Numbered from the stretch's first letter, positions 2,773 to 44,441 are shown. The stretch: DNA of 48,001 nt from an uncultured Lentimicrobiaceae bacterium (GCA_964598505.1 CAZRCF010000001.1:23479-71479), one strand, 5' to 3'. Program-made: numbers and translations. Notes: a model not told the origin generated them from the letters alone.

Positions 2773-2815
2773 ATATGAGGCGGCAAGATCACTATAGAAT
2801 CTTGCCGCCTCATAT
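2773..2815. repeat. Hairpin carrying the CGGCAAGAT/ATCTTGCCG core (copy 1)
   Basis: 17-bp perfect stem ATATGAGGCGGCAAGAT / ATCTTGCCGCCTCATAT with a 9-nt loop. Confidence 0.8.
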
Positions 2816-2903
2816 AAAAAATGAGAACCCTTCTACAATTTTGTAAGTGATTATTTTTGTTAACTATATATTATAGGAAGAATACTTTTTAAGGAGAAGA
2901 ATC

Positions 2904-3245
2904 ATGGCCGACCAGTTTAAAATTCAGGAAGCAGTTACTTTTGTTCAAGCAACCCCACCCGAAACTTTCAGATTAATGGATGTTACTATTGATAATATAC
3001 CAGTTGCTTATGAGCATGGTAAGGTACTTGCAACTGCAGCAGTTATTGATCTTAAAGTTGCAGAAGAAGTAAATATTTTTATTATGAATTGTGCAACAGG
3101 TGTATCTGTTAAAGTTGGTGGAACTACAAATCCAGCTTTATCAAATGTTACTCATTTTTCATATAAAGGTAACAAAACATCTATTTGGGTGTCGAATTCT
3201 GGAACAGAAGATGTTTCAATTAGTTATGCAACATGTAGTCTATAA
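2904..3245 (+). CDS. Hypothetical beta-rich protein, probably structural
   Basis: AAGGAG RBS; 113 aa ORF. Confidence 0.6.
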   Translation: MADQFKIQEAVTFVQATPPETFRLMDVTIDNIPVAYEHGKVLATAAVIDLKVAEEVNIFIMNCATGVSVKVGGTTNPALSNVTHFSYKGNKTSIWVSNSGTEDVSISYATCSL

Positions 3246-3259
3246 TAAGGACTTTTAAT

Positions 3260-3448
3260 ATGATTTCAATAAGTAAATTATTTGAAGATGCTAATGTTCA
3301 CGCAGAACATCCAAGTGGAATAGTGGCACCTTTTGGAATTATTAATCCGAGTGAAAAAAATAAAATTACTTTAGGTCAGTTTCAAAATATGAACAAGCTT
3401 GATCTCGATAGTCAGGCAAAAGAAATGAATAGACTTCGAGGCGATTAA
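3260..3448 (+). CDS. Small protein with MISISKLFE leader (putative head-packaged protein)
   Basis: AAGGA RBS; the N-terminus matches the repeated leader family. Confidence 0.6.
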   Translation: MISISKLFEDANVHAEHPSGIVAPFGIINPSEKNKITLGQFQNMNKLDLDSQAKEMNRLRGD

Positions 3449-3463
3449 ATAACTCTTTAGGGG

Positions 3464-5113
3464 GTGATAACAATTTATATTCACAACTTCTATGCCGATT
3501 TATTACTCTCCGTAAGAGTATTATTTGATAATCATATATTTCAAAATAGAGATTACGTAAAAAGATATGAGTTTAATATGGGCAATAGAACAATTCAATT
3601 GCCCAAAGATTATAAACCAAATTATGAGTTTCCAAATATAATTGTTACTCTTAATGATGATACTCCAAGTTATGGTCAACGTCCGGATGTGTCTCAAAAG
3701 ATATCAGGATTTAATTTAGATCAAATACCAGTTCTTTATAATCAGACAAATGGTGATGTTTTATGTGTTCAAGAAGAAATGGTAAATGTTCCTATTACTT
3801 GTACAATTAATTGTGAATCCCAGTTTCAAGCAAAAGAGATTGCCGCTATAATAAAAAGATGGTTACCAGTAAATAAGTTTATTACATTCTTACAATTTAC
3901 TTCGTATTTGGAAGTATCACAAGAATTCTTATCTACAAATCATTTTGATCCGGCAATTCATGTAATATCTAATCTTTATACTAAATTAAATCATAGAACT
4001 GGAGATATCGATTATTGTTATTCTTTACAATATGAACCTTTTATACGACTTGATTCAGTTTCAACATCAATTCCGGATTCAACTCAAAGATCATTTCAGG
4101 TATCTGTTGATATTACATTTATGATTCAACAACCATTATATATGTTCAATGATAGACTTCAGACACCGATGGAAAGGATCAATATTAATATTAATCCATT
4201 ATCTAAGTTTGAACCAATTAGTGATTTTCCAACTAGTAAAATGATTAATGGATTAAATGCTGATGTCGCAGAACTTAAAAAAGGTTTCATTAGAAGGACA
4301 TTTCTTGTAGTAGATAACAATGTTGTGGAAACTGTATTAAATTTGGATTATGTAGTTCTTACATCTGATCAAGTTACAAACACATCTACTGGTGGGCAAA
4401 ATATTGCTGCGACTAAAGGAGCTGATGATTTTATTTATATTACTTTAAGAACCAGCGAGACAAAATATAGAACAAATATGAATACAATTCCATCTCCTGA
4501 TGGAGTTAATATTGTATTAAGTACAGATGAATATTTGAAAGTAACAAAAGATCTTGCCGGTACAATAACAGTTATATTACATAAAATAACTCAGAGAATA
4601 ACAGTTCAATTTGCTCTAACGGATCTACAATTAACAACTGCATACTCGTACAATTTATTTAGCGGGAATAATATGTTGTTGGATTATGAAGATTATACAT
4701 TAGATACGACTGCTAATTCTGTTACATTTAGTTTTGATAACAGTCAATTTTCATCTTATACACCATCAACTACAAATCCTTTAATAGTTCAGTTCTGTTT
4801 GAAAGATATTCCAGATGCTAAATCTCCATATGGTATTCCACCAAAAGTTGGATTGATGAAAGTATTTAATATTTCTCAAATAGCGGCTGAAATAACTTGG
4901 TCTTCTGATGAGGAAACAACCACACAAGTAGAGTATGGAACTACTATAGAATATGGTGCTTTCTCATCTTTAAAAGAAAAACTTACAATTCTACATCATG
5001 TTGTTTTACCTAGTTTAGGACCAAATACAACATATCATTATCGGGTAAAAGTTACAAATTTAATAGGTGAAGAATATTTATCTGAAGATTTTAGTTTTAG
5101 TACTTTAGTATAG
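3464..5113 (+). CDS. Structural protein (possible neck/tail-terminator-like N-domain) with a C-terminal fibronectin-III-like domain
   Basis: The C-terminus AEITWSSDEETTTQVEYGTT...HHVVLPSLGPNTTYHYRVKV...SEDFSFST is an FN3/purple-acid-phosphatase-N-type pattern. The N-domain assignment is a guess from context. Confidence 0.5.
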   Translation: MITIYIHNFYADLLLSVRVLFDNHIFQNRDYVKRYEFNMGNRTIQLPKDYKPNYEFPNIIVTLNDDTPSYGQRPDVSQKISGFNLDQIPVLYNQTNGDVLCVQEEMVNVPITCTINCESQFQAKEIAAIIKRWLPVNKFITFLQFTSYLEVSQEFLSTNHFDPAIHVISNLYTKLNHRTGDIDYCYSLQYEPFIRLDSVSTSIPDSTQRSFQVSVDITFMIQQPLYMFNDRLQTPMERINININPLSKFEPISDFPTSKMINGLNADVAELKKGFIRRTFLVVDNNVVETVLNLDYVVLTSDQVTNTSTGGQNIAATKGADDFIYITLRTSETKYRTNMNTIPSPDGVNIVLSTDEYLKVTKDLAGTITVILHKITQRITVQFALTDLQLTTAYSYNLFSGNNMLLDYEDYTLDTTANSVTFSFDNSQFSSYTPSTTNPLIVQFCLKDIPDAKSPYGIPPKVGLMKVFNISQIAAEITWSSDEETTTQVEYGTTIEYGAFSSLKEKLTILHHVVLPSLGPNTTYHYRVKVTNLIGEEYLSEDFSFSTLV

Positions 5114-9252: not shown

Positions 9253-9492
9253 ATGATAACTGTATCAAAATTATTTTTAATAGAAGAAGGAATATTTAAT
9301 TGGGCAAGAGGAAGTATAGGTAGCAGATTTAGTGGAAGTCGAGCAGCACAGATGAATCGATCTACACCAAGACCTTTAGAGACTGGTGCTGTAAAAGTAG
9401 AAAAACTTAAACAAGCACAATCTCCGATGGTAGAAGCTGCTCCGAAGAAGCCTGTTGGATTTGGTTTAAAACCATCTGGTATAACAACTTGA
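9253..9492 (+). CDS. Small basic protein with MITVSKLFLIEE leader
   Basis: The leader is followed by GIFNWARG; this is the last + strand gene before a convergent hairpin. Confidence 0.6.
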   Translation: MITVSKLFLIEEGIFNWARGSIGSRFSGSRAAQMNRSTPRPLETGAVKVEKLKQAQSPMVEAAPKKPVGFGLKPSGITT

Positions 9493-9500: not shown

Positions 9501-9542
9501 ATTCCACCGGCAAGATCTAGTTAAAGATCTTGCCGGTGGAAT
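9501..9542. terminator. Hairpin between convergent genes carrying the AGATCTTGCCG core (copy 2)
   Basis: 18-bp perfect stem ATTCCACCGGCAAGATCT / AGATCTTGCCGGTGGAAT. The A-tract at 9495-9501 gives a U-tail for the minus-strand transcript. Confidence 0.8.
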
Positions 9543-10872: not shown

Positions 10873-12051
10873 TTATACTCCCATATCAGAAGTGATGTCT
10901 ACGATCTCCTTTAATGTTGACCTTGTCAAATCTGGTTCGGTCTTTTGAAGTTGAGCAATAATTTTGTTGAGAATATTTTTCTTATTTGTAGCTTTTTCAA
11001 ATTGTCTTATTTCTTTAATTATCATGATTGAAAGCTCTGATGCATCTTTCATAAATAATCCAATTAAATGTGAAATATTCGGCAAGAACTTATCACGATC
11101 ACTTCTACCGATATAATTTGTTGTTAAAGCATAAGCTAATGCATAAGTTTTAACAGATTCAGTTGGAAGTTGATATTCCTTATAATTTGCAAGAATGTTA
11201 TCAATGTCAAATTCAGAATAAATTTTATAGTATGTTGCGAATTCAGAAGCTCCTTCTTTTCCAACATAACCTGAACCAAGATACAAACAAGTATCAGTTC
11301 CTATAATTTTTTTATGATATTCTTCTCTTGATTTAACTTCATTTGCAAATCTCGTCCAAGATCTAGGTGATCCCCAAGCAACATCAACTTGTTCTTCTTC
11401 ATGGAAGAATTTTTGATATTGAAGATTTCCTAAGAAAGAAATAAATGCTGGATGAACTCTAGTTTCTTCTTTGAGAGCGAAATTCATTTTCCAACCATTA
11501 AAATCTGTATAAACGGGCATTAGAACACATCTGTTAACAATAGCACTAAACATTGATTTAGCTCCAGATTTACTACTTGTATTTCCAGCCATTACCATTG
11601 CACAATTATTTGGAATTTTATAACCTCTTAATGATCGTTCAGTAAAAAGCTCATATAATAATCCCATGTGAATTGGACTTAACAAATGTGCATCATCCAA
11701 TAGCCATACAACTATGGAATCTTTTTTTTGTTCAGATACATCATATAGAACTTTCATAATATCAGGAAATGACCAAATTGTTCCAAGAACTGGTTTTCCA
11801 TTAATCATAATTGTATCAAATTGTGGAATACCACCAGTTTCTTCAATTGGTTTTAATGCAAGATGGGTCGATACTACTCCAAATTCATATTCTTTACTTA
11901 GATAATGAATACTGGCTGTTTTTCCACCACCTGGTGCGCCACATATAAATGGAATACCAACATCAATTCCTTGTGTTTGTAAATGACAGTTCCATAGAAC
12001 CTCATTAATAACTTCGTGCAGTGCTTTTGAATTTTGAGAATCGTTAAACAT
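10873..12051 (-). CDS. MoxR-type AAA+ ATPase
   Basis: Walker A GAPGGGKT, Walker B LLDDA, sensor region VMAGN, arginine finger SAIVNRC; GGAGG RBS on the minus strand. Confidence 0.85.
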   Translation of the reverse strand: MFNDSQNSKALHEVINEVLWNCHLQTQGIDVGIPFICGAPGGGKTASIHYLSKEYEFGVVSTHLALKPIEETGGIPQFDTIMINGKPVLGTIWSFPDIMKVLYDVSEQKKDSIVVWLLDDAHLLSPIHMGLLYELFTERSLRGYKIPNNCAMVMAGNTSSKSGAKSMFSAIVNRCVLMPVYTDFNGWKMNFALKEETRVHPAFISFLGNLQYQKFFHEEEQVDVAWGSPRSWTRFANEVKSREEYHKKIIGTDTCLYLGSGYVGKEGASEFATYYKIYSEFDIDNILANYKEYQLPTESVKTYALAYALTTNYIGRSDRDKFLPNISHLIGLFMKDASELSIMIIKEIRQFEKATNKKNILNKIIAQLQKTEPDLTRSTLKEIVDITSDMGV

Positions 12052-12102: not shown

Positions 12103-12113
12103 ATTTCTATATA
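12103..12113 (-). promoter_or_regulatory. TATATAGAAAT motif upstream of the AAA ATPase
   Basis: Exact reverse-complement copy of the repeated intergenic motif, ~50 nt upstream of the start at 12051. Confidence 0.55.
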
Positions 12114-12150: not shown

Positions 12151-12516
12151 ATGAGAAAACAAACAATTTCTTTAGTAGATCATTTTTCATCCCAATCTTC
12201 AGATGTAAAAGGAATATTTAAAGAATTCGCGAAACCTATTTTAAGTAATGTTTTCTTTACGAATCTTGCCGCTCTTCGTTTAGAATCCGACTTTTATGAA
12301 TTTACAAATGATCGTTGGATGCAAAGACCTACAATTTTTTGTATGGATAACTATGATGAACCGATGTTATATCCAATAATTATGTTGGTAAACAATATTA
12401 AGACTTTTCTTGAATTTACACCAGATAGATTTGTACCAACAGTTAAGAATCAAAGAATTATTATTGCACCATATAGATCAACAATTAATAAAATATTAAG
12501 TACCTCAAATTCGTGA
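12151..12516 (+). CDS. Hypothetical protein
   Basis: 121 aa ORF with no recognised motif. Confidence 0.6.
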   Translation: MRKQTISLVDHFSSQSSDVKGIFKEFAKPILSNVFFTNLAALRLESDFYEFTNDRWMQRPTIFCMDNYDEPMLYPIIMLVNNIKTFLEFTPDRFVPTVKNQRIIIAPYRSTINKILSTSNS

Positions 12517-12526: not shown

Positions 12527-13531
12527 GTGGAGATGATATCTATGCCAGATCTAGACAAACAATTTCAACCATCATTTTTTTCAGATACTGATGTAAATTC
12601 AATTCTGAAAGCAGATGAGCAGAAAATCCTTATGATCAAAAAAGTCGCAAAATCTGCAGATTTATATAACTCGTTTAAGGAAGATTTTAGTAATTATCTT
12701 ACTAAGATGCCGGCAAATGCAGTTAAAGAAAGTTGCAGAAATTTATTAAATAAGGACTTAATATATTTGGGAGTTGCTAAGACTAAACCAGACAATGTAG
12801 TTGTTAGACCAATGATAACAACTACTGATAAACTTGCTGGGATTATTCTAGACTCTCAACAGCTTGGAGTCGATCCAACGACTGGTATTGCTGACTCAAT
12901 TGACGAATGTATTTACGCAACGTATTTTGGACTTGTTAGATCTGTTGTTTTACTCAACAAATCTGAAATTAGACAGAATAAGGACCTTCATAAATTACTA
13001 TCTACATATTTATATTTCCTGTTTTTGAAGGTGATTGGTTCTGATAAATTATATTCCGAAAAACAAAAAGCGTTAGTTCACATGTTGTCTATTTATATTT
13101 ATTATAAACATTATCTCAAAGAAAGACATTCTTATATATTAACAATTTTACAAAGAGATTATGAAAAGTTTATCGGCAAAGAATATATTGAAGAGTTCTT
13201 GCCGGTATTAGAGAATGTACAAAATTATACATCTCTTAAAGAGTTTCCAAAAATGCTTATAGATACAAAAGTAATAAATGAATCACCAAATGTTATGATA
13301 ATGTCTCTTTTAAAAATGTTAAAACCAATGGGATTTTATTCATTGGTTGGTCCATTAGACTATTTTATTCCTCTGGTTATTACTACAAAATATCCGGTTG
13401 AATTTATAGGAGCTAAAGCACCAACAAATGATAAGATTCAAAATGCAGTAGAAGATATTATGTCAAAATATATTGATTCAATTTCATATGATTTGACAGC
13501 TGTTGGAAAATTCGAAGTTAAAAATATTTAG
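12527..13531 (+). CDS. Hypothetical helical protein
   Basis: 334 aa ORF; the true start may be ATG at 12542, after GGAG. Confidence 0.7.
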   Translation: MEMISMPDLDKQFQPSFFSDTDVNSILKADEQKILMIKKVAKSADLYNSFKEDFSNYLTKMPANAVKESCRNLLNKDLIYLGVAKTKPDNVVVRPMITTTDKLAGIILDSQQLGVDPTTGIADSIDECIYATYFGLVRSVVLLNKSEIRQNKDLHKLLSTYLYFLFLKVIGSDKLYSEKQKALVHMLSIYIYYKHYLKERHSYILTILQRDYEKFIGKEYIEEFLPVLENVQNYTSLKEFPKMLIDTKVINESPNVMIMSLLKMLKPMGFYSLVGPLDYFIPLVITTKYPVEFIGAKAPTNDKIQNAVEDIMSKYIDSISYDLTAVGKFEVKNI

Positions 13532-14995: not shown

Positions 14996-15024
14996 ATTCA
15001 TAATTTATAGGAGGAATTTAAAAT

Positions 15025-17379: not shown

Positions 17380-17709
17380 ATGATTAATGTAAGTTATCTT
17401 TTTGAAGCTCTTGCCGATAATAAAGTTTCTAAAGTTGAGGTCTCTAAAAACTATATAATTCAGGATTTAAAAGATAGACCTCCTGAAGAAGATATTGAAG
17501 CTTATCGTCGTAAAATTACATATGATAAGGATGGCAATAAACATATAATTAATCTTGCAATTCTTAAAGGTGGTGGCACTAAAGCTACTTCTGTTTGGCA
17601 TACTAAAAAGGAAGGTTCTGCAAGATCTATGTTGAGTCGAACAAAGAAAAATGATCCAGAAAAAGTTCATATAAAAGATGATCCAGAAGATGATCATATA
17701 AAAGGATAG
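17380..17709 (+). CDS. Hypothetical protein with MINVSYLFE leader
   Basis: Leader motif; AAGGA RBS. Confidence 0.65.
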   Translation: MINVSYLFEALADNKVSKVEVSKNYIIQDLKDRPPEEDIEAYRRKITYDKDGNKHIINLAILKGGGTKATSVWHTKKEGSARSMLSRTKKNDPEKVHIKDDPEDDHIKG

Positions 17710-19986: not shown

Positions 19987-20841
19987 GTGGCTGGAGGATC
20001 ATTAATAGATCGAGAATTTATTGGCACTATTTTACCGGCAAAAGATTCAGCACACCAAGGTAAATATAAAGTAAATGTTCCAGAACTTCAACCACATATG
20101 AAAGATTCAACTGGAATTTGGTGTAAGAATCATACTTGTAAGAATCGAGTAACACCATCTCAAAATGGTGTTTATGGATCTTACTACCCATTACATCCTG
20201 GGATATCAGTGATTGTGAAATTTTTTGCCAATCATATCGAATCAGGATATATTGATAGAATAATTTCAGACGCATATCCTGAAACTTTGCCGTATGAAAT
20301 AATTGAAAGAGATGATTATTATCAAATCATAAGAACACCAAAACACAATAATTTGATAGCAATATATGAAGGTGATTCTGCTTCTAAAAATGTACCAAAG
20401 AATTCAATTCATATTTATTATAATGAAACAAGAACAACCGTAGTAATTGATGAAACAGGAATTAATGTTAAAACCGATGATAATATTAATATCACTGTTG
20501 GAAAGAATTGTAAAATAACAGTAACTGGAACAGCAGACATTAAAGTGACCGGTAATACAAATATTGAAACTTCTGCTGATGCTAATATTAAAGCCGCTGG
20601 AAAAGTTAATGTTCAAGCTGGTGGTGATGCTAATGTTAAATCTGGAGCAAATTTAAATCTTGACGGAGGATCTGTTGTTAATATTAAAGGTGGATCAGCT
20701 ATTAATCTTCAAGCTCCAGCAATCAATATGAATGGAACAGCAGCAGCTGCGGGTACAGCTACCGCTGCAGCTCTTGCCGATCTTCCAACATTAATAACAA
20801 GAACAGATTATAAATACTTCACAAAAAGCGCAGGGAATTAA
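19987..20841 (+). CDS. Baseplate hub/central spike, T4 gp5/VgrG-like (OB fold plus beta-helix)
   Basis: N-terminal FIGTI...QGKYKVNVPEL...WC...GSYYPL.PG..VIVKF; C-terminal 8-residue beta-helix repeats (NITVGKNCKITVTGTADIKVTGNTNIE...); AAGGAG RBS before GTG. Confidence 0.8.
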   Translation: MAGGSLIDREFIGTILPAKDSAHQGKYKVNVPELQPHMKDSTGIWCKNHTCKNRVTPSQNGVYGSYYPLHPGISVIVKFFANHIESGYIDRIISDAYPETLPYEIIERDDYYQIIRTPKHNNLIAIYEGDSASKNVPKNSIHIYYNETRTTVVIDETGINVKTDDNINITVGKNCKITVTGTADIKVTGNTNIETSADANIKAAGKVNVQAGGDANVKSGANLNLDGGSVVNIKGGSAINLQAPAINMNGTAAAAGTATAAALADLPTLITRTDYKYFTKSAGN

Positions 20842-20844: not shown

Positions 20845-21495
20845 ATGTTAATTAATTATAATCAAACTTTAAAGATATTAACAGAAGATGTTGATAATAT
20901 TGATACTCTTATCGTTAATCATCTTGGTAGAGTAAGTGCGGCTAATGATCATCCTTCTATTTCAAATAAGTTTAAACCTAAGCCGTTAGGCATTATTATA
21001 TCCGATTCATACAACAACCCTTTTTTCCCTATCCGACCAATGCCTAGGATAGATTCTGCCAAGATTGATTTATTTTTAATCTATAAAAGATTTAGGGAAT
21101 TGTATTCTCAATTCGAAGTTACTTTATTACCTTGGCATTTTGTAATAGAATTCATTAAAGATAGATATTATGTATTCAATACTAGACCGATTGATATGTT
21201 CTTTCCGGTTAATAATCAAGATGTTATGAATCGGCAAGATCTATGGGATGATGTCACAAAGACATTTATGAAGAATTATATCTTTGATATTAAAGAAGCT
21301 ATTCATATTTTAGTTGTTGGAGATAGTAATATAGATGTTTATACTAAAAAGTTTTATGAGCTTCTTGGTCGATTTTGTATTGTTCCGAATATTAGATATT
21401 TTAAGATAGCAAATATAGATTATGAAACAATTGTTCCTTTGAATATGGGACGTAAGTTTAATCTAAGTTTGACTACGAAATTTGTTAGGAGATAG
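20845..21495 (+). CDS. Amidase_2/PGRP-fold protein, apparently catalytically degenerate
   Basis: GIIISDS, PWHFVIE...NTRP and AIHILVVGDSN follow the amidase pattern but lack the canonical Zn ligands. Confidence 0.45.
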   Translation: MLINYNQTLKILTEDVDNIDTLIVNHLGRVSAANDHPSISNKFKPKPLGIIISDSYNNPFFPIRPMPRIDSAKIDLFLIYKRFRELYSQFEVTLLPWHFVIEFIKDRYYVFNTRPIDMFFPVNNQDVMNRQDLWDDVTKTFMKNYIFDIKEAIHILVVGDSNIDVYTKKFYELLGRFCIVPNIRYFKIANIDYETIVPLNMGRKFNLSLTTKFVRR

Positions 21496-28278: not shown

Positions 28279-29274
28279 ATGACGCAGTTCAATGATTTAA
28301 TGAAAATGTTAGAAGTATCAGATTTTAATTCTACTCAAGTAGTTGCACAAACAGAGGAAGTTCCACAACCAATTTTTCCGAAAGAAGAAACGCAATCAAT
28401 TGAATCTTCTTATGAGATCTTGCCGAATCTTCCAACAGATTACGAACCATTTAATATTGATAAATTTACTAAAGAACTTTACGAAAAGTCAGCCGTTAAA
28501 AATCAATTGTACAGAGAATCAATTCAGAATATTAGTGCATATGATATTTCATCTGGATGTATAAGAGAGATTATTTATAAATTAAATAATACACCAGTGG
28601 AGTCTTTTGCCGATAAATGGTTACCTATATTAATGAGATCAACAATAGGAACTGCAATTCATGAATTTATTCAAAACAATACTAATCAATTTACTGAAAG
28701 AGAAGTTTCTTTAAAGATTCCATCAATTAGATTCTCAGGAAGATTAGATAATCTAATTGGTCCAAATATGTTAATTGAAATTAAAAGCTGTCCATATTCA
28801 GACTATGAGAAAATCATATCAACTAGAAAACCAAGGCTTACTGACTTTTATCAGTCAATGACCTATAAATATATTTTAGAAAATTATTTAGAAGAAGCAA
28901 GAGATCCGAAAATTAAAGTTCGAAGAGGAACATTAAAACCTAAATTTGATAAATATGATATTAAAACAATTCAATTCATTTATGTTGCTCATGATGTAAC
29001 TGCGACGGATGTAGATTCTTTTGGAGAGATTTTAGAAAGAATTAAGCAATTAAAACGTTTACTTAATTCTAAATCTAATTCATTCTTCTTTATAACTACA
29101 ATGACTGTAGATGTTACAAATGGAGTTGCTGCTCCATTTCTTGAGTATGTTGATAATAAAATTAAAGCTATAAATGATTATATGAATAAACAACAATTGC
29201 CAGATTTAAGTGATCCTTATGTGGATAAGAAAAGTTGTTTCTTTTGTACTTATTCTAGGATATGTGGCAAATAA
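28279..29274 (+). CDS. Stand-alone Cas4-like PD-(D/E)xK exonuclease with four putative Fe-S Cys
   Basis: SAYDISSGC, GTAIHE, SGRLD, IEIKS, Q...Y, C-terminal CFFCTYSRIC. Confidence 0.8.
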   Translation: MTQFNDLMKMLEVSDFNSTQVVAQTEEVPQPIFPKEETQSIESSYEILPNLPTDYEPFNIDKFTKELYEKSAVKNQLYRESIQNISAYDISSGCIREIIYKLNNTPVESFADKWLPILMRSTIGTAIHEFIQNNTNQFTEREVSLKIPSIRFSGRLDNLIGPNMLIEIKSCPYSDYEKIISTRKPRLTDFYQSMTYKYILENYLEEARDPKIKVRRGTLKPKFDKYDIKTIQFIYVAHDVTATDVDSFGEILERIKQLKRLLNSKSNSFFFITTMTVDVTNGVAAPFLEYVDNKIKAINDYMNKQQLPDLSDPYVDKKSCFFCTYSRICGK

Positions 29275-32773: not shown

Positions 32774-33655
32774 ATGGATTTTAACGAATTGTTATTAGAG
32801 GTGTCAAAATTTAGAAGCGAAATTTTGAAAGATATTGATCGAAATTTTGATCTTATAAAGAAAGATAAAAAAGATCTTGCCGCCAAAAAAGAATTAGTAA
32901 AGAATATTAAAGAATTTGCGAGTGTTAAGAATATAATACTAACGGTAAAGAAAGATTATTTTAATGCTGCTGTTATTCCATTATACAATCAATCGCTCTC
33001 GATGGATCTTTTAAATATCTTTAAAGATTATAAACCTGAAGGTGATATAAAAGATATTGAAGTTGTTGATGAACCTTCTAAATATATTATAAAATTATAT
33101 ATTATATTTGGCGAAGAACTTATCGATAAATTTTCTGCAAGAGAATTAACGGCAATTCTCTTGCATGAACTTGGTCATAGTTTTACATACACTTCTAATT
33201 TACCAAGAATTTTATTATCATTATTTCAGAAAAGTGTTGGAATTGTTGGAGTAACATTACGATATCCGCTCTTATGGATATTTAATTTAATTACAATTCC
33301 GGCTTATTTGGCATCAACATTGATTATTATAACAGTTGTAAGATCGTTAACTTTTATAGAACACAGAAGTGAATATAAAGCAGATCAATTTGCTGTTAAA
33401 TATGGATATGGTGATGAAATGGTCAAAGTATTATATATACTTCACGGCAAAGAAAAAGAAGAGGCTTCTAAGGAAGCTTGGTGGAAGAAAATTTGGAATT
33501 TTATTGAAGATATTTTTTCACCTTCATCACATCCAACAAGTTCAAATAGAATTAAAGAAGTTAATACGCATTTAATAAACGAATATAAGAAACTTTATCC
33601 AAAGTTATCAAATGAATTAAATATAATTTTAAAAGATATTACTAAAAGTTCATAA
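32774..33655 (+). CDS. M48-family Zn metallopeptidase
   Basis: ELTAILLHELGH, a hydrophobic segment, SEYKADQFA..YGYG, HP....RI; N-terminus MDFNELLLE. Confidence 0.8.
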   Translation: MDFNELLLEVSKFRSEILKDIDRNFDLIKKDKKDLAAKKELVKNIKEFASVKNIILTVKKDYFNAAVIPLYNQSLSMDLLNIFKDYKPEGDIKDIEVVDEPSKYIIKLYIIFGEELIDKFSARELTAILLHELGHSFTYTSNLPRILLSLFQKSVGIVGVTLRYPLLWIFNLITIPAYLASTLIIITVVRSLTFIEHRSEYKADQFAVKYGYGDEMVKVLYILHGKEKEEASKEAWWKKIWNFIEDIFSPSSHPTSSNRIKEVNTHLINEYKKLYPKLSNELNIILKDITKSS

Positions 33656-35832: not shown

Positions 35833-36555
35833 ATGCAACTATTGGCCGAAAATTATAATTTTGATGCAATGGTCGAATCACAGAACGCATTGCGGAAGAT
35901 CCAAGAATCGAAGAGTAAGAAAATAAATCATTTAGAGTTAATTCAAGAAGGGATTCAAAAAGCATCTGCTGGTTCTGAATTTTTTGAAGCTTATGATTCG
36001 TTATTATGGGAAGGCAAAGTAAAAATTGATATGCTTTATTTTGATCAACTTTTACAAAAAATTGAAGAATCAGAACAAGTTTATGAAGCTCTGGGAAGCT
36101 ATTTCAAAAATATTCGACAGATTTATGAATTTGTTAATTTGAAACCAGAGATATATGGTAAAGGTTTGGATTACTCACTTCTTGAGAAATCGAATGAAAC
36201 ACAACATCAGTTATTGTCTAATGTTATTTATGAATATTTTGATAAGAATTTTTATTCATTATCAGTTGAACAACGCAAACAAAAATATCTTGAGGAATCT
36301 CGTGAACTTGCTAAACATTTGATTTCTGAAGGTACTGAACCAGAGGAAGCAATTTCTTTTAGCACAAAAGTTAGCATTGTTGAAAGTTTATTACAGAAGA
36401 TTGCATTTCCGTTTGCCGTTTGGTCAAGAATTAATTATCTTACAGAATCAGATGATTATCGTAAAGTTTTCGATCAAGAAGCTTTAGTAGATTTGGTAGA
36501 TTCTTTTGAGAAGAAAGTACATTCATTATCTAAAGTTGTGAGTGCTGTTGTCTAA
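35833..36555 (+). CDS. Hypothetical helical acidic protein
   Basis: AAGGAGG RBS; 240 aa. Confidence 0.65.
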   Translation: MQLLAENYNFDAMVESQNALRKIQESKSKKINHLELIQEGIQKASAGSEFFEAYDSLLWEGKVKIDMLYFDQLLQKIEESEQVYEALGSYFKNIRQIYEFVNLKPEIYGKGLDYSLLEKSNETQHQLLSNVIYEYFDKNFYSLSVEQRKQKYLEESRELAKHLISEGTEPEEAISFSTKVSIVESLLQKIAFPFAVWSRINYLTESDDYRKVFDQEALVDLVDSFEKKVHSLSKVVSAVV

Positions 36556-36583
36556 AATTATAGAAGTTTATAAGGGAGAGAAT

Positions 36584-37835: not shown

Positions 37836-37874
37836 TTAATCGGCAAGATCTTTAAACTAGATCTTGCCGATTAA
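37836..37874. repeat. Hairpin with the AGATCTTGCCG core (copy 3)
   Basis: 16-bp perfect stem TTAATCGGCAAGATCT / AGATCTTGCCGATTAA, loop TTAAACT; abuts the next RBS. Confidence 0.8.
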
Positions 37875-37884: not shown

Positions 37885-38991
37885 ATGGGAATTTTAGATA
37901 CGGTCACAAGTAGTATTTTTAAGAGTAGTGGAGGATCTATTACTGAAGATTTATTTGGCTATCAAGGAGCTACTTTAATTGGATATTTAGATTCAGTTTT
38001 TGCAGCAGGTCAACCACATGCTGATGTTATAAAATATTTTTATCAGCAATTATATCGAGATTTTGCACCAGATATTAATGGTTATACAATGGTGTTTTTT
38101 ATACCACCACATTTGTCTGGTTATCAAAATAACATAAATTTAGAAGGTCTTGACATGTTGTATGATCAAATTGATCCAAATAGTTATATGAGTACTGTTG
38201 GTAAAATTATGACATTTGCTGCAGTTGATTTTACACCTCCACAGAGTCAAGTTAGAACGGAAAGTGTATCTACACGTTCAGGTTCGATACCAATAGCTTC
38301 AGAAGTGTCCGAATCAGAAACGTGTTCGATTACTTTTATAGATAATAGTAATCTAGATATTTATATGTTTCATCATCTTTGGGTTGAATATATTCGTGAA
38401 ATTCTTGAAGGAACAGTCGAACCACAAGATATATATTATGATACTCTTAGAATTAAAGATAAACAAACAGGTAAAATAACTGAAACAGGTGATCCAGTTG
38501 ATAGTGATTTTTATGGTGCAATTGATTATGCAGCCGCTTTTTATATTGTTAAATATAGACCAGATATGAAAACAGTTACATACATTTCAAAATGTGTTGG
38601 TGTATTTCCCCAGAGCTTGCCGAACAAAGAATTAATAGGATCAAGAGCAACTAATGAAATTGTAACTCTCCCATTTACATATTCTTGTAGTGGATTTCGA
38701 GAAGCATTATATCATGAACAATCAACTGGTATGTGGATTTTTGATGAATTAGATACAATACTTCAAAGATTTTCCTCTAAACCTAGTGAAGGGTTGTTTG
38801 GTGGTTTCTTGGGAGAAGTTCTTAATAATGTTATTGGTCCAACAAGTGGAGTTCTTAAAAACTTAACAAGTAATGCTGCTACTCTTGGTGGAATTACAGG
38901 AGCTACACAAACAGGGCTTTCAAATATGTGGTCATCTATCAAAGGTGTAGCTCAACCAAATGGATTTTCTAAAATTTTCAGTGTAAAATAA
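37885..38991 (+). CDS. Tail tube / baseplate-tube junction-like protein
   Basis: FTPPQ...SETCSITFIDNSNLDIYMFHHLWVEY...GVFPQSL...LPFTYS resembles the tube fold, and the gene sits next to the baseplate gene. ATG 37885 follows AAGGAG. Confidence 0.55.
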   Translation: MGILDTVTSSIFKSSGGSITEDLFGYQGATLIGYLDSVFAAGQPHADVIKYFYQQLYRDFAPDINGYTMVFFIPPHLSGYQNNINLEGLDMLYDQIDPNSYMSTVGKIMTFAAVDFTPPQSQVRTESVSTRSGSIPIASEVSESETCSITFIDNSNLDIYMFHHLWVEYIREILEGTVEPQDIYYDTLRIKDKQTGKITETGDPVDSDFYGAIDYAAAFYIVKYRPDMKTVTYISKCVGVFPQSLPNKELIGSRATNEIVTLPFTYSCSGFREALYHEQSTGMWIFDELDTILQRFSSKPSEGLFGGFLGEVLNNVIGPTSGVLKNLTSNAATLGGITGATQTGLSNMWSSIKGVAQPNGFSKIFSVK

Positions 38992-39012: not shown

Positions 39013-42000
39013 ATGGCATCGACTCTACCAGATCTTAGTTATACAACTCCTGAGGAGTTTGTAAATTATTATTATGAGAAGCTTAAAACAGATTTAAGTG
39101 TGTATGATTTACAAATTAGTAAAGTTGGTTTTGTTGGTTATTTTTTAAACCTTCTTGGATATACACATTTTGATTTAAAACAATATTATGATAGTTTATT
39201 TAAAGAGTCTTTTGTTGGAACGTCACAGACAGAAGAAAGTCAATATTTACATGCATCAAATTATGGATATATTCCTACTTTTGCAAATGCTGCAAATGCT
39301 ACAGGAACGCTGCAATTTGATATGGTTAATTGGTTACCTAGAAGACAATCTAATGTTGTTAGAAGAGAAGTTATTATAGGTTATAATACAACATTGGGAG
39401 AATATACCCCGTTATCTAGTACATTTAAATTAGAGGATATACAATTTTCAATAGATTCAATCTATAAATTTGTCGAAATAGAGGATAATGGTTCTTATTA
39501 TTATTATACAGATATTATAACTTCAGATGGTACAAAAATTACTCTACCATCATCATCATTTTCAATTGTAGTCCCATTATATTCTACGACACAATATACC
39601 AAAAAAGAAATTTCGTTTGAGATCAAACCATATAATTTTGGTTCGTATCAAACATATTATTTTGGAATTGATTCAGGATACTATATTTCTGATCTTGAAG
39701 TTTATGTGACAGAAGTAGGATCAACAGTCGAAGAACAATATGATATCAAATATACGAAATACCTTGAAAAGGGAAATGACAAAAGTGTTTTTTTAAGAAA
39801 AATAACATCGATAGATTATGTTATTGAGTTTGGTTCGGGTGTTCGAGGAAATTGGATTTCTGGTGCCAGTATAAGAATAGTTATTAAAACAACAAGAGGA
39901 ACTGCTGGAAATTTAATAGATAAAACAAATCAAAAATTGCAGATTACAGGTAATACTTTATCATTTGATTATATTCTTGAATCAACAAGTCTTTTAACAT
40001 CTATAAATTCAACAGTTTTACAACAACCGCTTGTTGATTTTGATTATGCTGAAAGTGGGCGCAATCCACTTAGTGGAGAAGATTTACGAGATGCAATTGT
40101 GAATTTTATACAAACTCGTGAAAATTTAATTAGTCAGCAGGATTTTTATAATATTGCTGCTGATTATTTTGATGATTTTAAATTTCTTTTTAAGAAGTTT
40201 AATATATATGATAATATTTTTCATCTTTGTAGATCTTTTAGAGATCGAAATCAGACAATTTTTTATACTACAAATCATACAGAACAAGTAATGAATTTAA
40301 AAATAACATCAGGTTCAAGTTATGATATTACTGCAACTCCTTTAGCTGGAACAGGAACATTAGTATCCGGAGTATATGGATATTTCGTTATATCTATTGA
40401 TGCGTGGGGACATTCTGAACCATCTAAAATAGTTCAGGCAACTGTAAATAGTGGTGCAGGAGAAAATTCTGTTACTATTACTTGGGATATAGTTCCATAT
40501 GCAACAAAATATCGAGTCTATGGAAGAGCATCAACTTTTAGAGATCAATATTGGGAAGTAGATGATGATGGTAGTTTAACATATTCAATTATTGATGATG
40601 GAACTTCTGGAACTGCTGATACTGAACCAATATCATATGAATTACAAGAGATATATTATAGACCATTATTTACAATAGAAAGTCGAAACTTTATAAGTCC
40701 TTATGTATTTAAAGGAAACACTAGAATGAATTATTATGATGGTTATCTCATGAAAGATCTTTCTAGAATTGAGTTTGCTGAGATACTTCCTGAATCGAGT
40801 ACACTTGGTACGGGTTTTGATATTCCAATGGTATATCTGAATTTGGAATATGATGAAAGTTCTTATAAAACTGTTGTTAAACTAAAATCTTATCAAACAA
40901 TAGGAAATTTAGTTTTTTCAATATCTGTATTTGGTGAAAATTTTGATATTGTTGGTAAACGAATGACATGTTTTCCATTACCCCCAGATGTTCTTTGTCC
41001 TAACTATTTCGTATACGAATATACTGATGTCGATACATTCGGAATATTTGAAAAAGAAATACAAATGGAGATAAAAGGAGGAACTGCAAGTTCGATCATT
41101 ACTAATAGTATTGAACCATATACAATTGGAGCAGGAGAAGATATATTAAAAATTAAATGTAATGACATCTCAGAAGGATATATTGACTCATTTATTACTG
41201 TTACTCTTACAACTGGAGTTGTAACTGCTACTCAAATTGTAACAGATATAAATAATACTGTTGGTCTTATAGGACTTAATATTGCCTCTGTTTATGTAGA
41301 TGATGATGGGAATAATAGAGTTAATATTACACCACCAAGTGCAACTGTTACTAATGTTTTTATTGGTGAAACCTCAACATGTTTATTTGTTCTTGGACTC
41401 ACTGGAAGCGATACAGAACCTGCTGCTTTAAATGGACCAATAACATCTCTTAAATTTGTATGTAGAACCAATAAATTTTACCAATTAATAGATACATCAG
41501 ATCAATTAAAATTAATGAGATATAATTCCGGTGATGATTCATATATTATTAATGTTCCAGTTGTTGATGATATTACGTTTGATACAGATCCAGATTATTA
41601 TCTTGATAAGATTAAAAATTTTATTATAGATTCATCATTTAGTGAAAATAGAATGATTACGGACAATGTTCAATGTAGATTTTTAAATTCATATATGATT
41701 GAATCACCATTTATAGAATCAATATTTATTCAAAGTGGAGAAATATTTTCTAATAAAGAATATGAATTTCTTGGCTCCGTTATTGAAACCCTATCGTCTC
41801 CTCCTATTGTAGCTTTAAATGGTTCTCGTTATCGAGTTTCTACTTCTCCAGTTGGTGGAAGTGAATTTGAAGGACATTCTAATGAAATAGCATCTTATAT
41901 TACTGGTGCATGGGAATTTTATTCACCCATACTAAATGATTTCATTTTAGATAGTAACACAAACATTTATTACAGATGGAATTCAAATACTTCAACATGG

Positions 42001-42402
42001 GATAATATTCCAAAAATAATTTTACCATTATGTATGAGAATTGAAGCCAAAGCTGATAAAACTTATACTCAGAAAAATAATATTGATATAGCTACTGAAA
42101 GAGAAAATTTAACATTATCTATTGCTGAATTCTTACAAAAAGGATTTAGCGGTTCTAATATTATATTTTATAATAGTTTAATAACTGAATTCGTTCATAC
42201 TGGTAGAGCTTTTATTAAATCTGTAAAAGTTTATGTTACAGATTCTTCGAATGTTCCAAATGAAATGGATAATGGTATTGAAGTTAAAAGTGATAATGAT
42301 ATTTTTGCTGGTTTAAAAGATAAACTTGATATTGTTAAATATGTTCCACCAATGATATATTGGGATGTTGATAATATTGATATTGTAATTAATGTTGAAT
42401 AG
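39013..42402 (+). CDS. Baseplate wedge protein, T4 gp6-like N-terminus with inserted decoration domains
   Basis: LNLLGY...ESFVGTSQ...HASNYGYIPTFANAA; IEFGSGVRG; TTRGTAGN; GRNPLSGEDLR...RENLISQQDF. Confidence 0.75.
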   Translation: MASTLPDLSYTTPEEFVNYYYEKLKTDLSVYDLQISKVGFVGYFLNLLGYTHFDLKQYYDSLFKESFVGTSQTEESQYLHASNYGYIPTFANAANATGTLQFDMVNWLPRRQSNVVRREVIIGYNTTLGEYTPLSSTFKLEDIQFSIDSIYKFVEIEDNGSYYYYTDIITSDGTKITLPSSSFSIVVPLYSTTQYTKKEISFEIKPYNFGSYQTYYFGIDSGYYISDLEVYVTEVGSTVEEQYDIKYTKYLEKGNDKSVFLRKITSIDYVIEFGSGVRGNWISGASIRIVIKTTRGTAGNLIDKTNQKLQITGNTLSFDYILESTSLLTSINSTVLQQPLVDFDYAESGRNPLSGEDLRDAIVNFIQTRENLISQQDFYNIAADYFDDFKFLFKKFNIYDNIFHLCRSFRDRNQTIFYTTNHTEQVMNLKITSGSSYDITATPLAGTGTLVSGVYGYFVISIDAWGHSEPSKIVQATVNSGAGENSVTITWDIVPYATKYRVYGRASTFRDQYWEVDDDGSLTYSIIDDGTSGTADTEPISYELQEIYYRPLFTIESRNFISPYVFKGNTRMNYYDGYLMKDLSRIEFAEILPESSTLGTGFDIPMVYLNLEYDESSYKTVVKLKSYQTIGNLVFSISVFGENFDIVGKRMTCFPLPPDVLCPNYFVYEYTDVDTFGIFEKEIQMEIKGGTASSIITNSIEPYTIGAGEDILKIKCNDISEGYIDSFITVTLTTGVVTATQIVTDINNTVGLIGLNIASVYVDDDGNNRVNITPPSATVTNVFIGETSTCLFVLGLTGSDTEPAALNGPITSLKFVCRTNKFYQLIDTSDQLKLMRYNSGDDSYIINVPVVDDITFDTDPDYYLDKIKNFIIDSSFSENRMITDNVQCRFLNSYMIESPFIESIFIQSGEIFSNKEYEFLGSVIETLSSPPIVALNGSRYRVSTSPVGGSEFEGHSNEIASYITGAWEFYSPILNDFILDSNTNIYYRWNSNTSTWDNIPKIILPLCMRIEAKADKTYTQKNNIDIATERENLTLSIAEFLQKGFSGSNIIFYNSLITEFVHTGRAFIKSVKVYVTDSSNVPNEMDNGIEVKSDNDIFAGLKDKLDIVKYVPPMIYWDVDNIDIVINVE

Positions 42403-42407
42403 TTTGG

Positions 42408-42454
42408 AACCGGCAAGATCTCTTTAAAATAATTTTATCTAGATCTTGCCGGTT
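42408..42454. repeat. Hairpin with the AGATCTTGCCG core (copy 4)
   Basis: 14-bp perfect stem AACCGGCAAGATCT / AGATCTTGCCGGTT with a 19-nt AT-rich loop. Confidence 0.8.
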
Positions 42455-42473
42455 AGAAAAGTGGAGGCTAAAA

Positions 42474-44441
42474 ATGATACAAATTCCTGGGACAAATACA
42501 CAACCTGGTGTTATTATTAATCCAGCTGTTGTTAATAATATATTACTAAAACAAGATTACAATACTTTGAATATGCTTCAAGAAACAAATGAAGTAGATA
42601 TTAATGATTATAATGTTAATGAGTGGATGAAATGCAGACAGAACCCTCTTTATTTTATACTCAATTATGTATACTTTAAAGAATATGGTGGTAAACAACT
42701 TTATTCGAAACAGTATATGCATAATAAATTAAGACGAGTTATAAGAGTAATATTTCGTCATCATATGGCTATGTTAATGGCCTCGAGACAGTTAGGGAAA
42801 TCAACAATTTCATCTGCTATCTTAGCCTGGGCTCTTATCTTTTATCCGGATAATAGAGCCGCAATCTTTAATTTTCAAAAAAGTGCTGCACAAGAAAATC
42901 TAAATAAAGTTAAATTTATAATTAAGAATCTTCCACCATGGTTGAAGATGACAGTTCCTAATGCATCTAGAAGCGAAATTAAGACTTATTTAGAATTAAA
43001 AAACGGATCAAGAATCGATACATTCTATCCTTCAACAACAGCTTCACCGGATACATTGTCTCGTTCTATATCTGTTCCAATTATTTATATTGATGAAGTT
43101 GCATTTATTCCTCATATGCAGGAAATATATGGATCTGCACAACCTACTATTTCTAAAGCTAGAGAACAAGCTATTAAGAATGATTATCCATATTTTATTC
43201 TAATGACTTCAACCCCAAACGGTGTTGATGATACTGGAAAATTTTTTTATGAGATGTATGATAAAGCAGTTGAATCAGATAATTTATTTATAGCGGATAA
43301 TGAAACTGGAATCGAAGATTGGGCAGAAACAGCAGGAAATATAATTGACGATGATTCTAAGAATAGTTTTATAAGAGTTAGATATCATTGGTCTGAAGAT
43401 ACTTCTAAACAAATAGGGTGGTATGAGCAACAAAAGAAAGAGCTTAATTTTAATACAAGACAAATTAATCAGGAACTTGACTTGTTATTTGTTGGAGGAA
43501 CAGATTGTATCTTTGACGATGAGACACTTCAGAAGTTTATTTATGTTAAACGTGATGCTGTAATTGATTTAAAACATCAAGCTAAATTAGATATCTTTCA
43601 AACTGATTTTGATCAGAAGGATTATTATTTGGTTGGAGTTGATACTGCAAGCTCTATTAAAGGAGCTTTTAATGCTATTGAAATCTTCACTTATAAAGAT
43701 TTTAGACAAGTTGCAGAAATGAATGTTCGATTAGCATCTTCAACAAAATATGGTGAAGTTCTTGATGATTTATTTAAATGGTTATATAAGATAGTTGGAT
43801 CAAGAATTATATTATGCATTGAAAATAATACAATTGGAAAACCAATTATTGAGCACTTACTTTATCATGTTAAAGATTTTAATTACATGCCGTATATTTA
43901 TAAAGATTTTAAAAAGAGTGAAATACCTGGTCAGAATATTGATATGCAAGATCATGAATGGGGAATCAACACGAACACGCGTACAAAAGAGCTTATGGTT
44001 TCTTTGCTTTATGATTTATTAAAAGAAGATCCGAGCAGATTGAAGTCGCAAGATTTGATTGCACAAATGAGTGCAATTCAAAGAAGTAATCGTGGGACAA
44101 TTCGTAGCTCAGGTTATAGCGATATGTTTATGTCAAGTTGTTTTTGTGCTTATGGCAGGAAAATGACAGAACTTCAGATCTTGCCGCAATTAGACTATTC
44201 GAATGTACAAATTTCACAAAATTTCTTTAATAGTATTAAATCTGCCGCTGACATGATGAATACAAAGTTAATTATTAAAAGTGATAATAAAAATCAAGTT
44301 AGTGAATTTATTAGTAGACCAAGAACTGTTCAAGAAGATGATGCTATAACTCAACAATTCCATCAACAAGCTAACAAACAAGAGGGTGGAATGACAAATG
44401 ATGATTGGAAAATTTATATGCCAATTATGACTGATTTTTAA
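42474..44441 (+). CDS. terL: Terminase large subunit, T4 gp17-like
   Basis: EWMKCRQNPLYFI, Walker A ASRQLGKS, Walker B IYIDEVAF, TSTPNG, nuclease GVDTAS, IENN, DMFMS. Confidence 0.92.
   Translation: MIQIPGTNTQPGVIINPAVVNNILLKQDYNTLNMLQETNEVDINDYNVNEWMKCRQNPLYFILNYVYFKEYGGKQLYSKQYMHNKLRRVIRVIFRHHMAMLMASRQLGKSTISSAILAWALIFYPDNRAAIFNFQKSAAQENLNKVKFIIKNLPPWLKMTVPNASRSEIKTYLELKNGSRIDTFYPSTTASPDTLSRSISVPIIYIDEVAFIPHMQEIYGSAQPTISKAREQAIKNDYPYFILMTSTPNGVDDTGKFFYEMYDKAVESDNLFIADNETGIEDWAETAGNIIDDDSKNSFIRVRYHWSEDTSKQIGWYEQQKKELNFNTRQINQELDLLFVGGTDCIFDDETLQKFIYVKRDAVIDLKHQAKLDIFQTDFDQKDYYLVGVDTASSIKGAFNAIEIFTYKDFRQVAEMNVRLASSTKYGEVLDDLFKWLYKIVGSRIILCIENNTIGKPIIEHLLYHVKDFNYMPYIYKDFKKSEIPGQNIDMQDHEWGINTNTRTKELMVSLLYDLLKEDPSRLKSQDLIAQMSAIQRSNRGTIRSSGYSDMFMSSCFCAYGRKMTELQILPQLDYSNVQISQNFFNSIKSAADMMNTKLIIKSDNKNQVSEFISRPRTVQEDDAITQQFHQQANKQEGGMTNDDWKIYMPIMTDF

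Follow-up and report, generated by a model that had tools for sequence, protein, structure and literature searches.

Sequence words that are over-represented in a genome, such as uptake sequences, Chi, the FtsK-orienting polar sequences (KOPS), and the highly iterated palindrome HIP1, are features of cellular genomes and reveal machines that read DNA by site density. Where uptake sequences double as terminators, the usual explanation is that one inverted pair supplies two tags together with a hairpin. For the DNA uptake sequences (DUS) and uptake signal sequences (USS), one orientation is commoner in genes through coding constraints, and copies lean towards gene termini (PMC2346458). Here we describe an 11-bp word, AGATCTTGCCG (CGGCAAGATCT on the opposite strand), in a 48,001-nt stretch of DNA deposited under an uncultured Lentimicrobiaceae bacterium (GCA_964598505.1, CAZRCF010000001.1:23479-71479; hereafter the window, by which the whole stretch is meant), which belongs to a 205-kb contig from a clade of jumbo phages that bring genes of their own for transcription and replication. 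Selection acts on the word as a sequence, whichever way it is oriented and even where it lacks a partner, and does so in this phage lineage but not in its surroundings. We know of no equivalent recognition word intrinsic to a virus lineage, nor of a viral precedent for its in-gene half, and as far as our literature search found, the combination of word-based hairpins with in-gene single copies has not been described in a virus before.

The likeness to DUS and USS is close: the word is short and asymmetric, within their range of 9-12 nt, is hugely over-represented, stands in both orientations and several reading frames in genes, and its intergenic copies form inverted pairs that double as hairpins of the terminator type. 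The carrier, however, is a lytic-type jumbo phage lineage and not a competent bacterium, the inverted-pair scan of GTDB having found no bacterial genome with the word; there is no uptake machinery and no drive through recombination into a host, so that the force by which copies accumulate must be a different one. The sequence AGATCTTGCCG is also, as we take it, distinct from the DUS and USS cores and dialects.

For the hairpins, the closest described systems are the giant phages phiKZ and 201phi2-1, which encode their own RNA polymerases (RNAPs) and have sequence-conserved terminator hairpins (PMC10914365, PMC11512511), the phiKZ motif being BCCYCCCCHWWDGGGRRGGBYTTAT (PMC10914365). The present clade resembles them in having a multisubunit RNAP of its own (a fragment is seen in loci L025 and L106) and in the many post-gene intergenic hairpins that share a stem sequence. 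It differs in that the phiKZ stem is C-rich/G-rich and followed by TTAT, whereas the clade stem is another sequence by direct motif comparison, most clade hairpins lack a U-tract, and the clade hairpins are known from sequence alone. No report was found in the literature of the phiKZ half-stem being enriched as in-gene single copies. The hairpin half of our pattern is thus a new member of the class of conserved giant-phage terminators, with phiKZ and 201phi2-1 as its closest known relatives.

Other comparisons are more partial. Chi sites are 5-8 nt long, are defined by a host enzyme, and are strongly skewed with the direction of replication; the clade word shares with them an over-represented asymmetric sequence, a density of about one site per few kilobases achieved partly via codon choice, and the logic of a density-based 'self' signal, but it has 10 specified bases, is bound to a phage clade, and, once coding cost is allowed for, has no preferred orientation. 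The stoperators of mycobacteriophage L5 and the C1 operators of phage P1 are asymmetric 13-17-bp sites for one phage protein, present in dozens per genome and also in short intergenic gaps; such sites serve the repressors of temperate phages, and stoperators are oriented with transcription and rare inside genes, whereas the clade word is orientation-independent, has 36 exact in-gene singles, and is obligatorily paired at its intergenic sites. HIP1 (GCGATCGC), a cyanobacterial 8-bp palindrome with a GATC core, is enriched about 100-fold in coding and non-coding DNA; the clade word likewise contains GATC and reaches about 100-fold enrichment, but it is asymmetric, longer, and viral. Repetitive extragenic palindromes (REPs) and miniature inverted-repeat transposable elements (MITEs) differ from it through its in-frame in-gene copies and the conservation of hairpin positions across the clade.

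In the window we count 11 exact copies of the word, seven on the + strand and four on the - strand, against 0.01 expected from dinucleotide-preserving shuffles; at one mismatch or fewer there are 19 copies (0.35 expected), and the core TCTTGCCG, with 18 copies (0.30 expected), is the top over-represented k-mer of the window at k = 8-11. When the window genes (open reading frame calls) are shuffled with their codons preserved, five exact sense copies stand against 0.067 expected and two antisense copies against 0.023. The 1-mismatch copy at 25133, which lies within an 18-nt coding tandem repeat, is probably due to chance. An earlier note on this DNA, made by reading the sequence, had given the same 11 copies at the same positions with about 0.01 expected, and the shuffles return that figure. 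It had also described three hairpins with exact arms (9508/9525, 37841/37859, 42411/42441) and a fourth with near-exact arms (2781/2798, outer stem GAGG/CCTC), outer stems that differ yet pair, variable loops, and five singles in coding sequences (CDSs) at rare codons; all of these were found again, with loops of 5-19 nt, the same reading frames, and codons that are rare by clade usage, and the partial copies it had listed correspond to the core at 11080, 12264, 13197, 17409, and 20772. The uptake-sequence-like distribution it had proposed holds as well, with genes containing singles in more than one frame and in either orientation, and intergenic DNA containing inverted pairs.

Several simpler readings of the word were tried and rejected. 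It is not a protein motif, being read in three frames and both orientations; it does not reflect GATC avoidance or restriction-site logic, GATC not being depleted; and it is not a promoter, since it has no fixed geometry upstream of genes, in-gene copies lie far from starts, and the promoter positions are occupied by a different motif, TTTCATATAGAAATWAT. No known RNA family and no tRNA was found.

The clade set comprises about 628 kb once redundancy is removed, and 182 exact copies and 97 hairpins were found in it. In-gene counts, taken with the hairpins masked, were compared with an analytic null that takes each protein sequence and the codon usage of the clade as given. In-gene sense copies number 29 against 0.273 expected (106-fold) and in-gene antisense copies 7 against 0.100 (70-fold); the sense-strand excess of singles is explained by coding cost, and the enrichment itself is orientation-neutral. 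These 36 exact in-gene singles collapse to about 25 distinct sites. Within peptide contexts able to hold the word, counted with hairpins unmasked, x-D-L-A-[G-starting codon] is exact in 20 of 32 cases and I-L-P in 10 of 23, and the codons involved account for small shares of their amino acids in the clade (ATC 8%, TTG 13%, CCG 9%, GCC 7%). Variants with C or T at position 3 are enriched 87-fold and 75-fold over the codon-aware null, while the GCCG end is strict, which gives the consensus AG[A/C/T]TCTTGCCG, after which there is usually a base other than T and then a pair of A/T bases. In-gene copies lean towards gene termini. A complementary partner within 80 nt was found for them no better than for random positions, and hidden local hairpins were rejected on this ground.

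The large terminase gene (TerL) offers the clearest view of this conservation. Its site, kept at rare synonymous codons across lineages that are only 60-83% identical in protein, reads exactly xAG ATC TTG CCG in 8 of the 20 distinct orthologues aligned (L047 and L069 also carry the word), and the flanking Leu, Thr, and Asp codons vary freely where the word is exact. Of the 20 loci, 14 retain ATC and 17 retain CCG, codons whose general usages are 8% and 9%. In other orthologues residue 570 is Ala, Val, Ser, or Met but AGATC-NN-GCCG is retained, and three have the fully AT-rich synonyms CAA ATT TTA CCA. The majority residue at 570 is Ala in a five-sequence alignment, and the presence of the word may have imposed the Leu found there. 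Sites in the M48-peptidase gene and in the gene of a 549-amino-acid protein are likewise common to relatives whose flanks have diverged.

Between genes, the word forms the inner 11 bp of hairpin stems of 14-20 bp, the stem extending 0-10 bp past it. Loops measure 6 nt in 54 hairpins, with 5-8 nt typical and 18-20 nt in 12, and at least some of these long loops are self-pairing; exact intergenic singles amount to only 10, about four of them without any nearby partner. From the upstream stop codon to the start of a hairpin there are 0-15 nt, and from its end to the next start usually 10-30 nt; the genes on either side are co-directional or convergent and in no case divergent. The hairpins before the tail-tube-like gene and TerL occupy the same positions in nearly all relatives, with different loops and outer stems. 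In the 54 six-loop hairpins, outer stem columns have changed on both sides with pairing kept in 17-24 sequences, the inner 11 pairs are almost invariant, and the covariation score of 0.268 compares with 0.114 for shuffled sequences and no more than 0.10 when the register is slid. Compensatory double changes inside the word are rare but clear (AGGTCT/AGACCT, AGCTCT/AGAGCT, AGTTCT/AGAACT, TTGCTG/CAGCAA, TCTCGCCG/CGGCGAGA, and TCTGGCCG/CGGCCAGA; loci L013, L024, L053, L058, L069, L082, L083, and L089). It follows from the covariation and these compensatory changes that pairing is selected, and the sequence in addition. The predicted RNA stability of the four word hairpins in the window is -23 to -32 kcal/mol. 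Because strong word-free hairpins also occur between window genes (728-765, 1795-1854, 16186-16227, 28140-28175, 29320-29355, and 31338-31411; -20 to -24 kcal/mol for the four that were folded), the word hairpins are one class among several gene-end hairpins. At L044 1227-1242, the two arms overlap via an AGATCT palindrome, giving a loop-less 16-bp palindrome 2 nt past the stop codon.

The hairpins fall into two groups by what follows them. Those with a T-tract have a longer gap to the next gene than the others (median 50 against 19.5 nt; Mann-Whitney p = 0.002), and in 10 of 22 cases this gap contains TTTCATATAGAAATWAT, so that the pair looks like a terminator followed by a promoter. The motif was recognised in the window as (T/C)ATATAGAAAT(A/T), which is extended in relatives to TTTCATATAGAAATWAT; all seven exact window copies are intergenic and upstream of genes (e.g., that of the Cas4-like nuclease and the gene at 31470), a one-mismatch copy, TTATAGAAAT, stands at 25496 upstream of UvsX, and TTTCATATAGAAATWAT is probably the promoter of the clade. 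In the second group, the hairpin runs up to the Shine-Dalgarno sequence of the following gene and no promoter-like motif intervenes, which means that transcription of genes such as TerL has to pass through such a hairpin; judged by their anatomy, these hairpins would attenuate transcription, stabilise RNA ends, or mark processing sites, and would not be full terminators. The terminator-type placement at gene 3' ends, the promoter-like motif after some hairpins, and the RNAP of the clade all go beyond the earlier note.

That the carrier is a phage follows from its gene content. The window encodes a T4-type large terminase, which is found on a 205,069-bp metagenome contig, as well as a tail-tube-like protein, collagen-like fibre proteins, UvsX, a Cas4-like nuclease, an M48 peptidase, a DUF2201/MoxR pair, and a Tad6-like protein; relatives add DNA polymerase B, SSB, RecQ-like and DEAD helicases, and a split class II ribonucleotide reductase, and an RNA polymerase beta'-like piece (RNA_pol_Rpb1_2) lies outside the window in L025 and L106. 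The listed runs that hold the terminase sequence are aquatic, freshwater, sediment, or unspecified metagenomes, and the source sites of the clade are freshwater and engineered anoxic; among 50,697 deposited phage genomes, no close relative of the window was found.

To see who else carries the word, we searched for the inverted pair CGGCAAGATCT-N(4-30)-AGATCTTGCCG, which matched 8 contigs in IMG/VR (5 of them low-GC) and 47 stretches in GTDB (one genome per species, 185,579 species). The multi-copy low-GC loci of GTDB come from three metagenome-assembled genomes ('MAGs') labelled Nitrospiraceae, Bacteroidetes, and Patescibacteria; many of these hit contigs encode homologues (55-84% amino acid identity) of window proteins or of other clade proteins, other hit contigs have phage-type genes (DNA polymerase B, SSB, an RNAP fragment), and by these predicted proteins the multi-copy contigs are mis-binned contigs of the phage clade. 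The low-GC matches of IMG/VR and GTDB that could be tested by homology all encode homologues of clade proteins; the remaining low-GC loci have no homologues in the partial clade set, and some of them encode DNA polymerase B, SSB, or the RNAP fragment. Sharing with unrelated phages was rejected, every low-GC IMG/VR match tested being a clade member, and the hairpin is absent from the cultured phages of INPHARED. All other GTDB matches are single occurrences, mostly in higher-GC genomes. A terminase-anchored search, which was not ascertained on the word, returned 22 metagenome loci with TerL 57-83% identical, nearly all of which carry the word, and in L106, a locus reached through its RNAP gene and not through the word, 21 kb contain one hairpin as well as two exact singles inside genes, one of the latter in ribonucleotide reductase. 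Outgroups at 34% and 23% TerL identity have no matching hairpin and no shared word or dialect, a wider TerL profile search of IMG/VR gave no intermediate relatives, and in the literature the word was found only in what appear, judged from titles, to be unrelated primer or construct sequences. As far as searched, the word is restricted to one phage clade, for which it is a diagnostic signature, and it has exposed phage contigs in three public 'bacterial' MAGs.

Two side observations came out of these searches. Clade contigs with terminase, tail tube, DNA polymerase B, SSB, and RNAP-fragment genes, in L019-L064, derive from the public 'MAGs' CAZFOG01, JAGVVH01, and JALNZW01, and also JAKPKU01 and CAYSWG01; their presence under the labels Nitrospiraceae, Bacteroidetes, Patescibacteria, Cloacimonadota, and Geobacteraceae is probably due to binning errors, for which the word is a quick diagnostic. 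Two copies of CGGCAAGATCTTGCCG, a perfect palindrome of 16 bp, lie near each other in L012, L026, L028, L033, and L060 (about 50-68% GC), which are unrelated bacteria (labelled Geopsychrobacter, Pelovirga, Sphingomonas, and a Deltaproteobacteria MAG) and one viral contig of 63% GC; the palindrome resembles the operator of a transcription factor and probably has nothing to do with the phage word.

The explanation that we favour, at a probability of about 0.5, has two levels, in that a DNA word of the phage lineage would be read as duplex and would double as the stem of hairpins. At the intergenic level, an inverted pair would be laid down as the inner 11 bp of a transcript 3'-end hairpin behind a stop codon, whereby one pair would give two tags and a useful 3' hairpin at once; the T-tract subset, often followed by TTTCATATAGAAATWAT, would act as terminators at the borders of transcription units, which the word would thus mark, and the remaining hairpins would act within operons as attenuators or RNA stabilisers. 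At the in-gene level, unpaired singles would be kept in either orientation despite rare codons and even amino acid changes. Since these singles are unpaired, the hairpin role is insufficient to account for them, and we infer a sequence-specific reader, of which the simplest form, given an unpaired and orientation-neutral word, would be a protein that binds duplex DNA; because the word does not change among phages of 26-35% GC and 57% TerL identity and is missing elsewhere, this reader is probably phage-encoded and passed down in the phage lineage. Such a reader would treat the word as a 'self' tag by site density, as happens with uptake sequences or Chi, and its candidate roles include Chi-style attenuation or exclusion of a nuclease, packaging, condensation or genome organisation, and the marking of DNA for phage enzymes. 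Density-dependent roles such as these fit best, none favoured over the rest. More tentatively, and with the odds somewhat against it, the clade could be a virus lineage with its own self-DNA tagging, in which a phage-encoded protein would recognise AG[A/C/T]TCTTGCCG in its duplex form, with roughly one site in every 3-5 kb, and thereby protect, package, or organise phage DNA. If this is true, an analogue of uptake sequences or Chi has evolved inside a jumbo-phage clade, where it shapes codons and residues in essential genes such as those of the terminase and ribonucleotide reductase. The word also indicates that selection acting on the DNA itself can prevail over codon usage and protein sequence in core genes of phages.

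Several points weigh against this two-level explanation. Pfam and PHROGs scans of the window, its small conserved proteins included, gave no candidate for a DNA-binding reader. TTTT follows only 22 of the 78 co-directional hairpins (about 28%), and termination is deduced from hairpin anatomy. Orientation neutrality draws on seven antisense copies, and orthologous sites are not independent, so that the count of about 25 sites is only a rough correction. The GTDB scan was able to detect inverted pairs only, and the window covers about a quarter of the source phage genome. No gap between words in the window exceeds 5 kb (P = 0.001), an even spacing that did not recur across 11 other loci, so that a function limited by distance is not established. 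Spacing and strand bias had both been raised in the earlier note; the former thus stands for the window but not beyond it, and the latter comes down to coding cost. The DNA-level signal of the phage lineage that the same note had put forward is what the 106-fold and 70-fold enrichments, the rare-codon conservation in TerL, and the one-clade restriction point to, with in-gene copies that far exceed a codon-preserving null and are conserved at synonymous positions in relatives; both outcomes run counter to the grounds of refutation that the note had named.

Of the alternatives, an account by RNA only would make the hairpins a clade-specific signal for termination or processing that serves the phage's RNA polymerase, or else an RNA-binding factor, on the model of phiKZ, and would reduce the singles to pause sites, long-range partners, or decoys. 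Such an account draws on the hairpins with covarying stems at gene 3' ends, on the terminator-promoter units and the clade RNAP, on the sequence-conserved terminator motif of phiKZ and 201phi2-1, and on a non-significant lean of internal stem mismatches towards G.U (8 against 2 A.C on the sense strand, p = 0.11; 24:21 overall, with mismatches few in number). It is nevertheless rather unlikely: a reader of sense RNA does not predict the 70-fold antisense enrichment inside genes (7 against 0.10), singles without a local partner lie kilobases from hairpins, the loops (TTAACT and AGTTAA) are seen either way round with respect to transcription, and most hairpins lack a U-tract, genes such as TerL having to be transcribed through them. 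We consider it unlikely to a greater degree that the word accumulates by neutral molecular drive, through sequence-biased repair or gene conversion (very-short-patch repair-like or HIP1-like) that turns near-matches into the word, the intergenic pairs persisting as useful hairpins. The turnover of sites between lineages, the orientation-neutral enrichment, the GATC within the word, and the similar density of single copies in coding and intergenic DNA would all suit such a drive, but no repair or methylase candidate was seen, the testable near-cognates are not depleted (2 position 10 variants against 1.6-2.1 expected), and some sites persist across deep divergence and force an amino acid change (TerL A570L); ten specified bases are, to our knowledge, long for any repair specificity.

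A word imposed by the host, that is, a host uptake sequence or Chi-like site copied by the phage in order to exploit or evade RecBCD/AddAB, competence, or CRISPR adaptation, is improbable in our estimate, even though the density of about one site per 3-4 kb resembles that of Chi in E. coli and the distribution matches that of DUS and USS (van Passel 2008, PMC2346458). The scan of 185,579 species found repeated inverted pairs only on the mis-binned clade contigs of three 'MAGs' with incompatible taxonomic labels, which leaves the host uptake signal entertained in the earlier note without support, no unrelated phage in IMG/VR or INPHARED carries the inverted pair, and the word is unchanged across 26-35% GC and 57% TerL identity and thus across presumably different hosts. 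Its ten specified bases exceed any Chi known to us, and its sequence presumably differs from DUS and USS. Mobile miniature elements, finally, whose REP- or MITE-like palindromes would have been spread by a transposase or homing endonuclease, seem a most improbable source: the intergenic palindromes are many and near-identical, and relatives do have LAGLIDADG endonucleases and interrupted genes, but hairpin positions are conserved at 57-83% TerL identity while loops and outer stems diverge in place, the in-frame in-gene half copies could not be produced by insertion, Pfam and PHROGs scans of the window showed no RAYT or IS200-like gene, and in the TerL region no whole hairpin was seen to be present in one genome and missing from a near-identical one.

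Table 1. Word sites, partial copies, and second-motif copies in the window (positions count from its first nucleotide; L numbers denote clade loci)
Feature	Position	Strand	Context and remarks
Intergenic hairpin	2773..2815	.	Near-exact arms CGGCAAGAT/ATCTTGCCG plus outer stem ATATGAGG/CCTCATAT; 9 bp of word paired; starts 2 nt past stop of CDS 1883-2770; RNA fold -28.7 kcal/mol; same position in L019
Exact single	4549..4559	+	In CDS 3464-5113, K-D-L-A-G; no local partner; exact copy near same place in L019 orthologue (56% amino acid identity), about 1,085 vs 1,121 nt into the gene, flanks diverged
Perfect hairpin	9501..9542	.	18-bp stem, 6-nt loop, T-run on - strand, -32.1 kcal/mol; between convergent genes 9253-9492 (+) and 9548-10867 (-); position matched by hairpins in L031, L045, L004, L059
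1-mismatch AGTTCTTGCCG, position-3 variant	11080..11090	-	Sense in minus-strand AAA ATPase gene 10873-12051
Core 8-mer TCTTGCCG alone	12264..12271	+	In CDS 12151-12516
1-mismatch AGTTCTTGCCG	13194..13204	+	In CDS 12527-13531; identical variant at orthologous L045 site
1-mismatch AGCTCTTGCCG	17406..17416	+	In CDS 17380-17709
1-mismatch AGATCTTGCAG	17618..17628	-	Antisense in CDS 17380-17709; orthologous L045 position (608) is the exact word, likewise antisense
1-mismatch AGCTCTTGCCG	20769..20779	+	In CDS 19987-20841
Exact single	21232..21242	-	Antisense in CDS 20845-21495
Exact single	28415..28425	+	In Cas4-like nuclease gene 28279-29274, E-I-L-P
Exact single	32872..32882	+	In M48-peptidase-like gene 32774-33655, K-D-L-A-A; exact in L074 and L080 orthologues, one mismatch in L023; flanks diverged
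Hairpin	37836..37874	.	16-bp stem, 7-nt loop, -23.3 kcal/mol; 3 nt past stop of CDS 36542-37831; ends at Shine-Dalgarno sequence of tail-tube-like gene; hairpin ~4.6 kb upstream of TerL present in nearly all relatives
1-mismatch AGAGCTTGCCG	38612..38622	+	In tail-tube-like gene; conserved in relatives, possibly due to conserved peptide alone
Hairpin	42408..42454	.	14-bp stem, long partly self-pairing loop, -23.4 kcal/mol; 5 nt past stop of CDS 39013-42402, 19 nt before TerL start; present in 17/17 relatives aligned; compensatory arm changes in L082, L086, L089
Exact single	44176..44186	+	In large terminase gene, codons CAG ATC TTG CCG = Q568-I-L-P571
(T/C)ATATAGAAAT(A/T), exact	12103-12112	-
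(T/C)ATATAGAAAT(A/T), exact	22652-22661
(T/C)ATATAGAAAT(A/T), exact	28191-28200
(T/C)ATATAGAAAT(A/T), exact	28219-28228
(T/C)ATATAGAAAT(A/T), exact	31348-31357	-
(T/C)ATATAGAAAT(A/T), exact	31392-31401
(T/C)ATATAGAAAT(A/T), exact	31426-31435

The over-represented k-mers of the window that remain beside the word are explained by collagen-like Gly-X-Y coding repeats at 1-700 and 1340-1790, which have a period of 9/18/27, include GGTTCTTCTGG eight times, and belong to paralogous tail-fibre-like genes. In several relatives (L047, L080, L082-L086, and L091) the TerL matches are longer than the window gene or split, and the word site does not lie at the split point in L047, the sole split examined. 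In L106, a class II ribonucleotide reductase gene lies in two pieces at 14225-17791 with LAGLIDADG endonuclease genes nearby. Introns or inteins are common in this phage clade.

The label 'HNH endonuclease' (phrog_1314) that PHROGs gives to the window gene at 9548-10867 (-) is misleading, the Pfam assignment being a DUF2201 metallopeptidase/VWA-like protein, whose partner at 10873-12051 (-) is a MoxR-like AAA ATPase; the idea of a nickase beside the 9508 hairpin was rejected on these assignments. The window further encodes a C39-type peptidase (18760-19317), DUF5661/DUF5662 proteins (16242-16673 and 29990-30688), and, at 29535-29990, a 151-amino-acid protein that matches Pfam Tad6, a type I Thoeris inhibitor (E = 5e-14), and is a candidate anti-defence gene.

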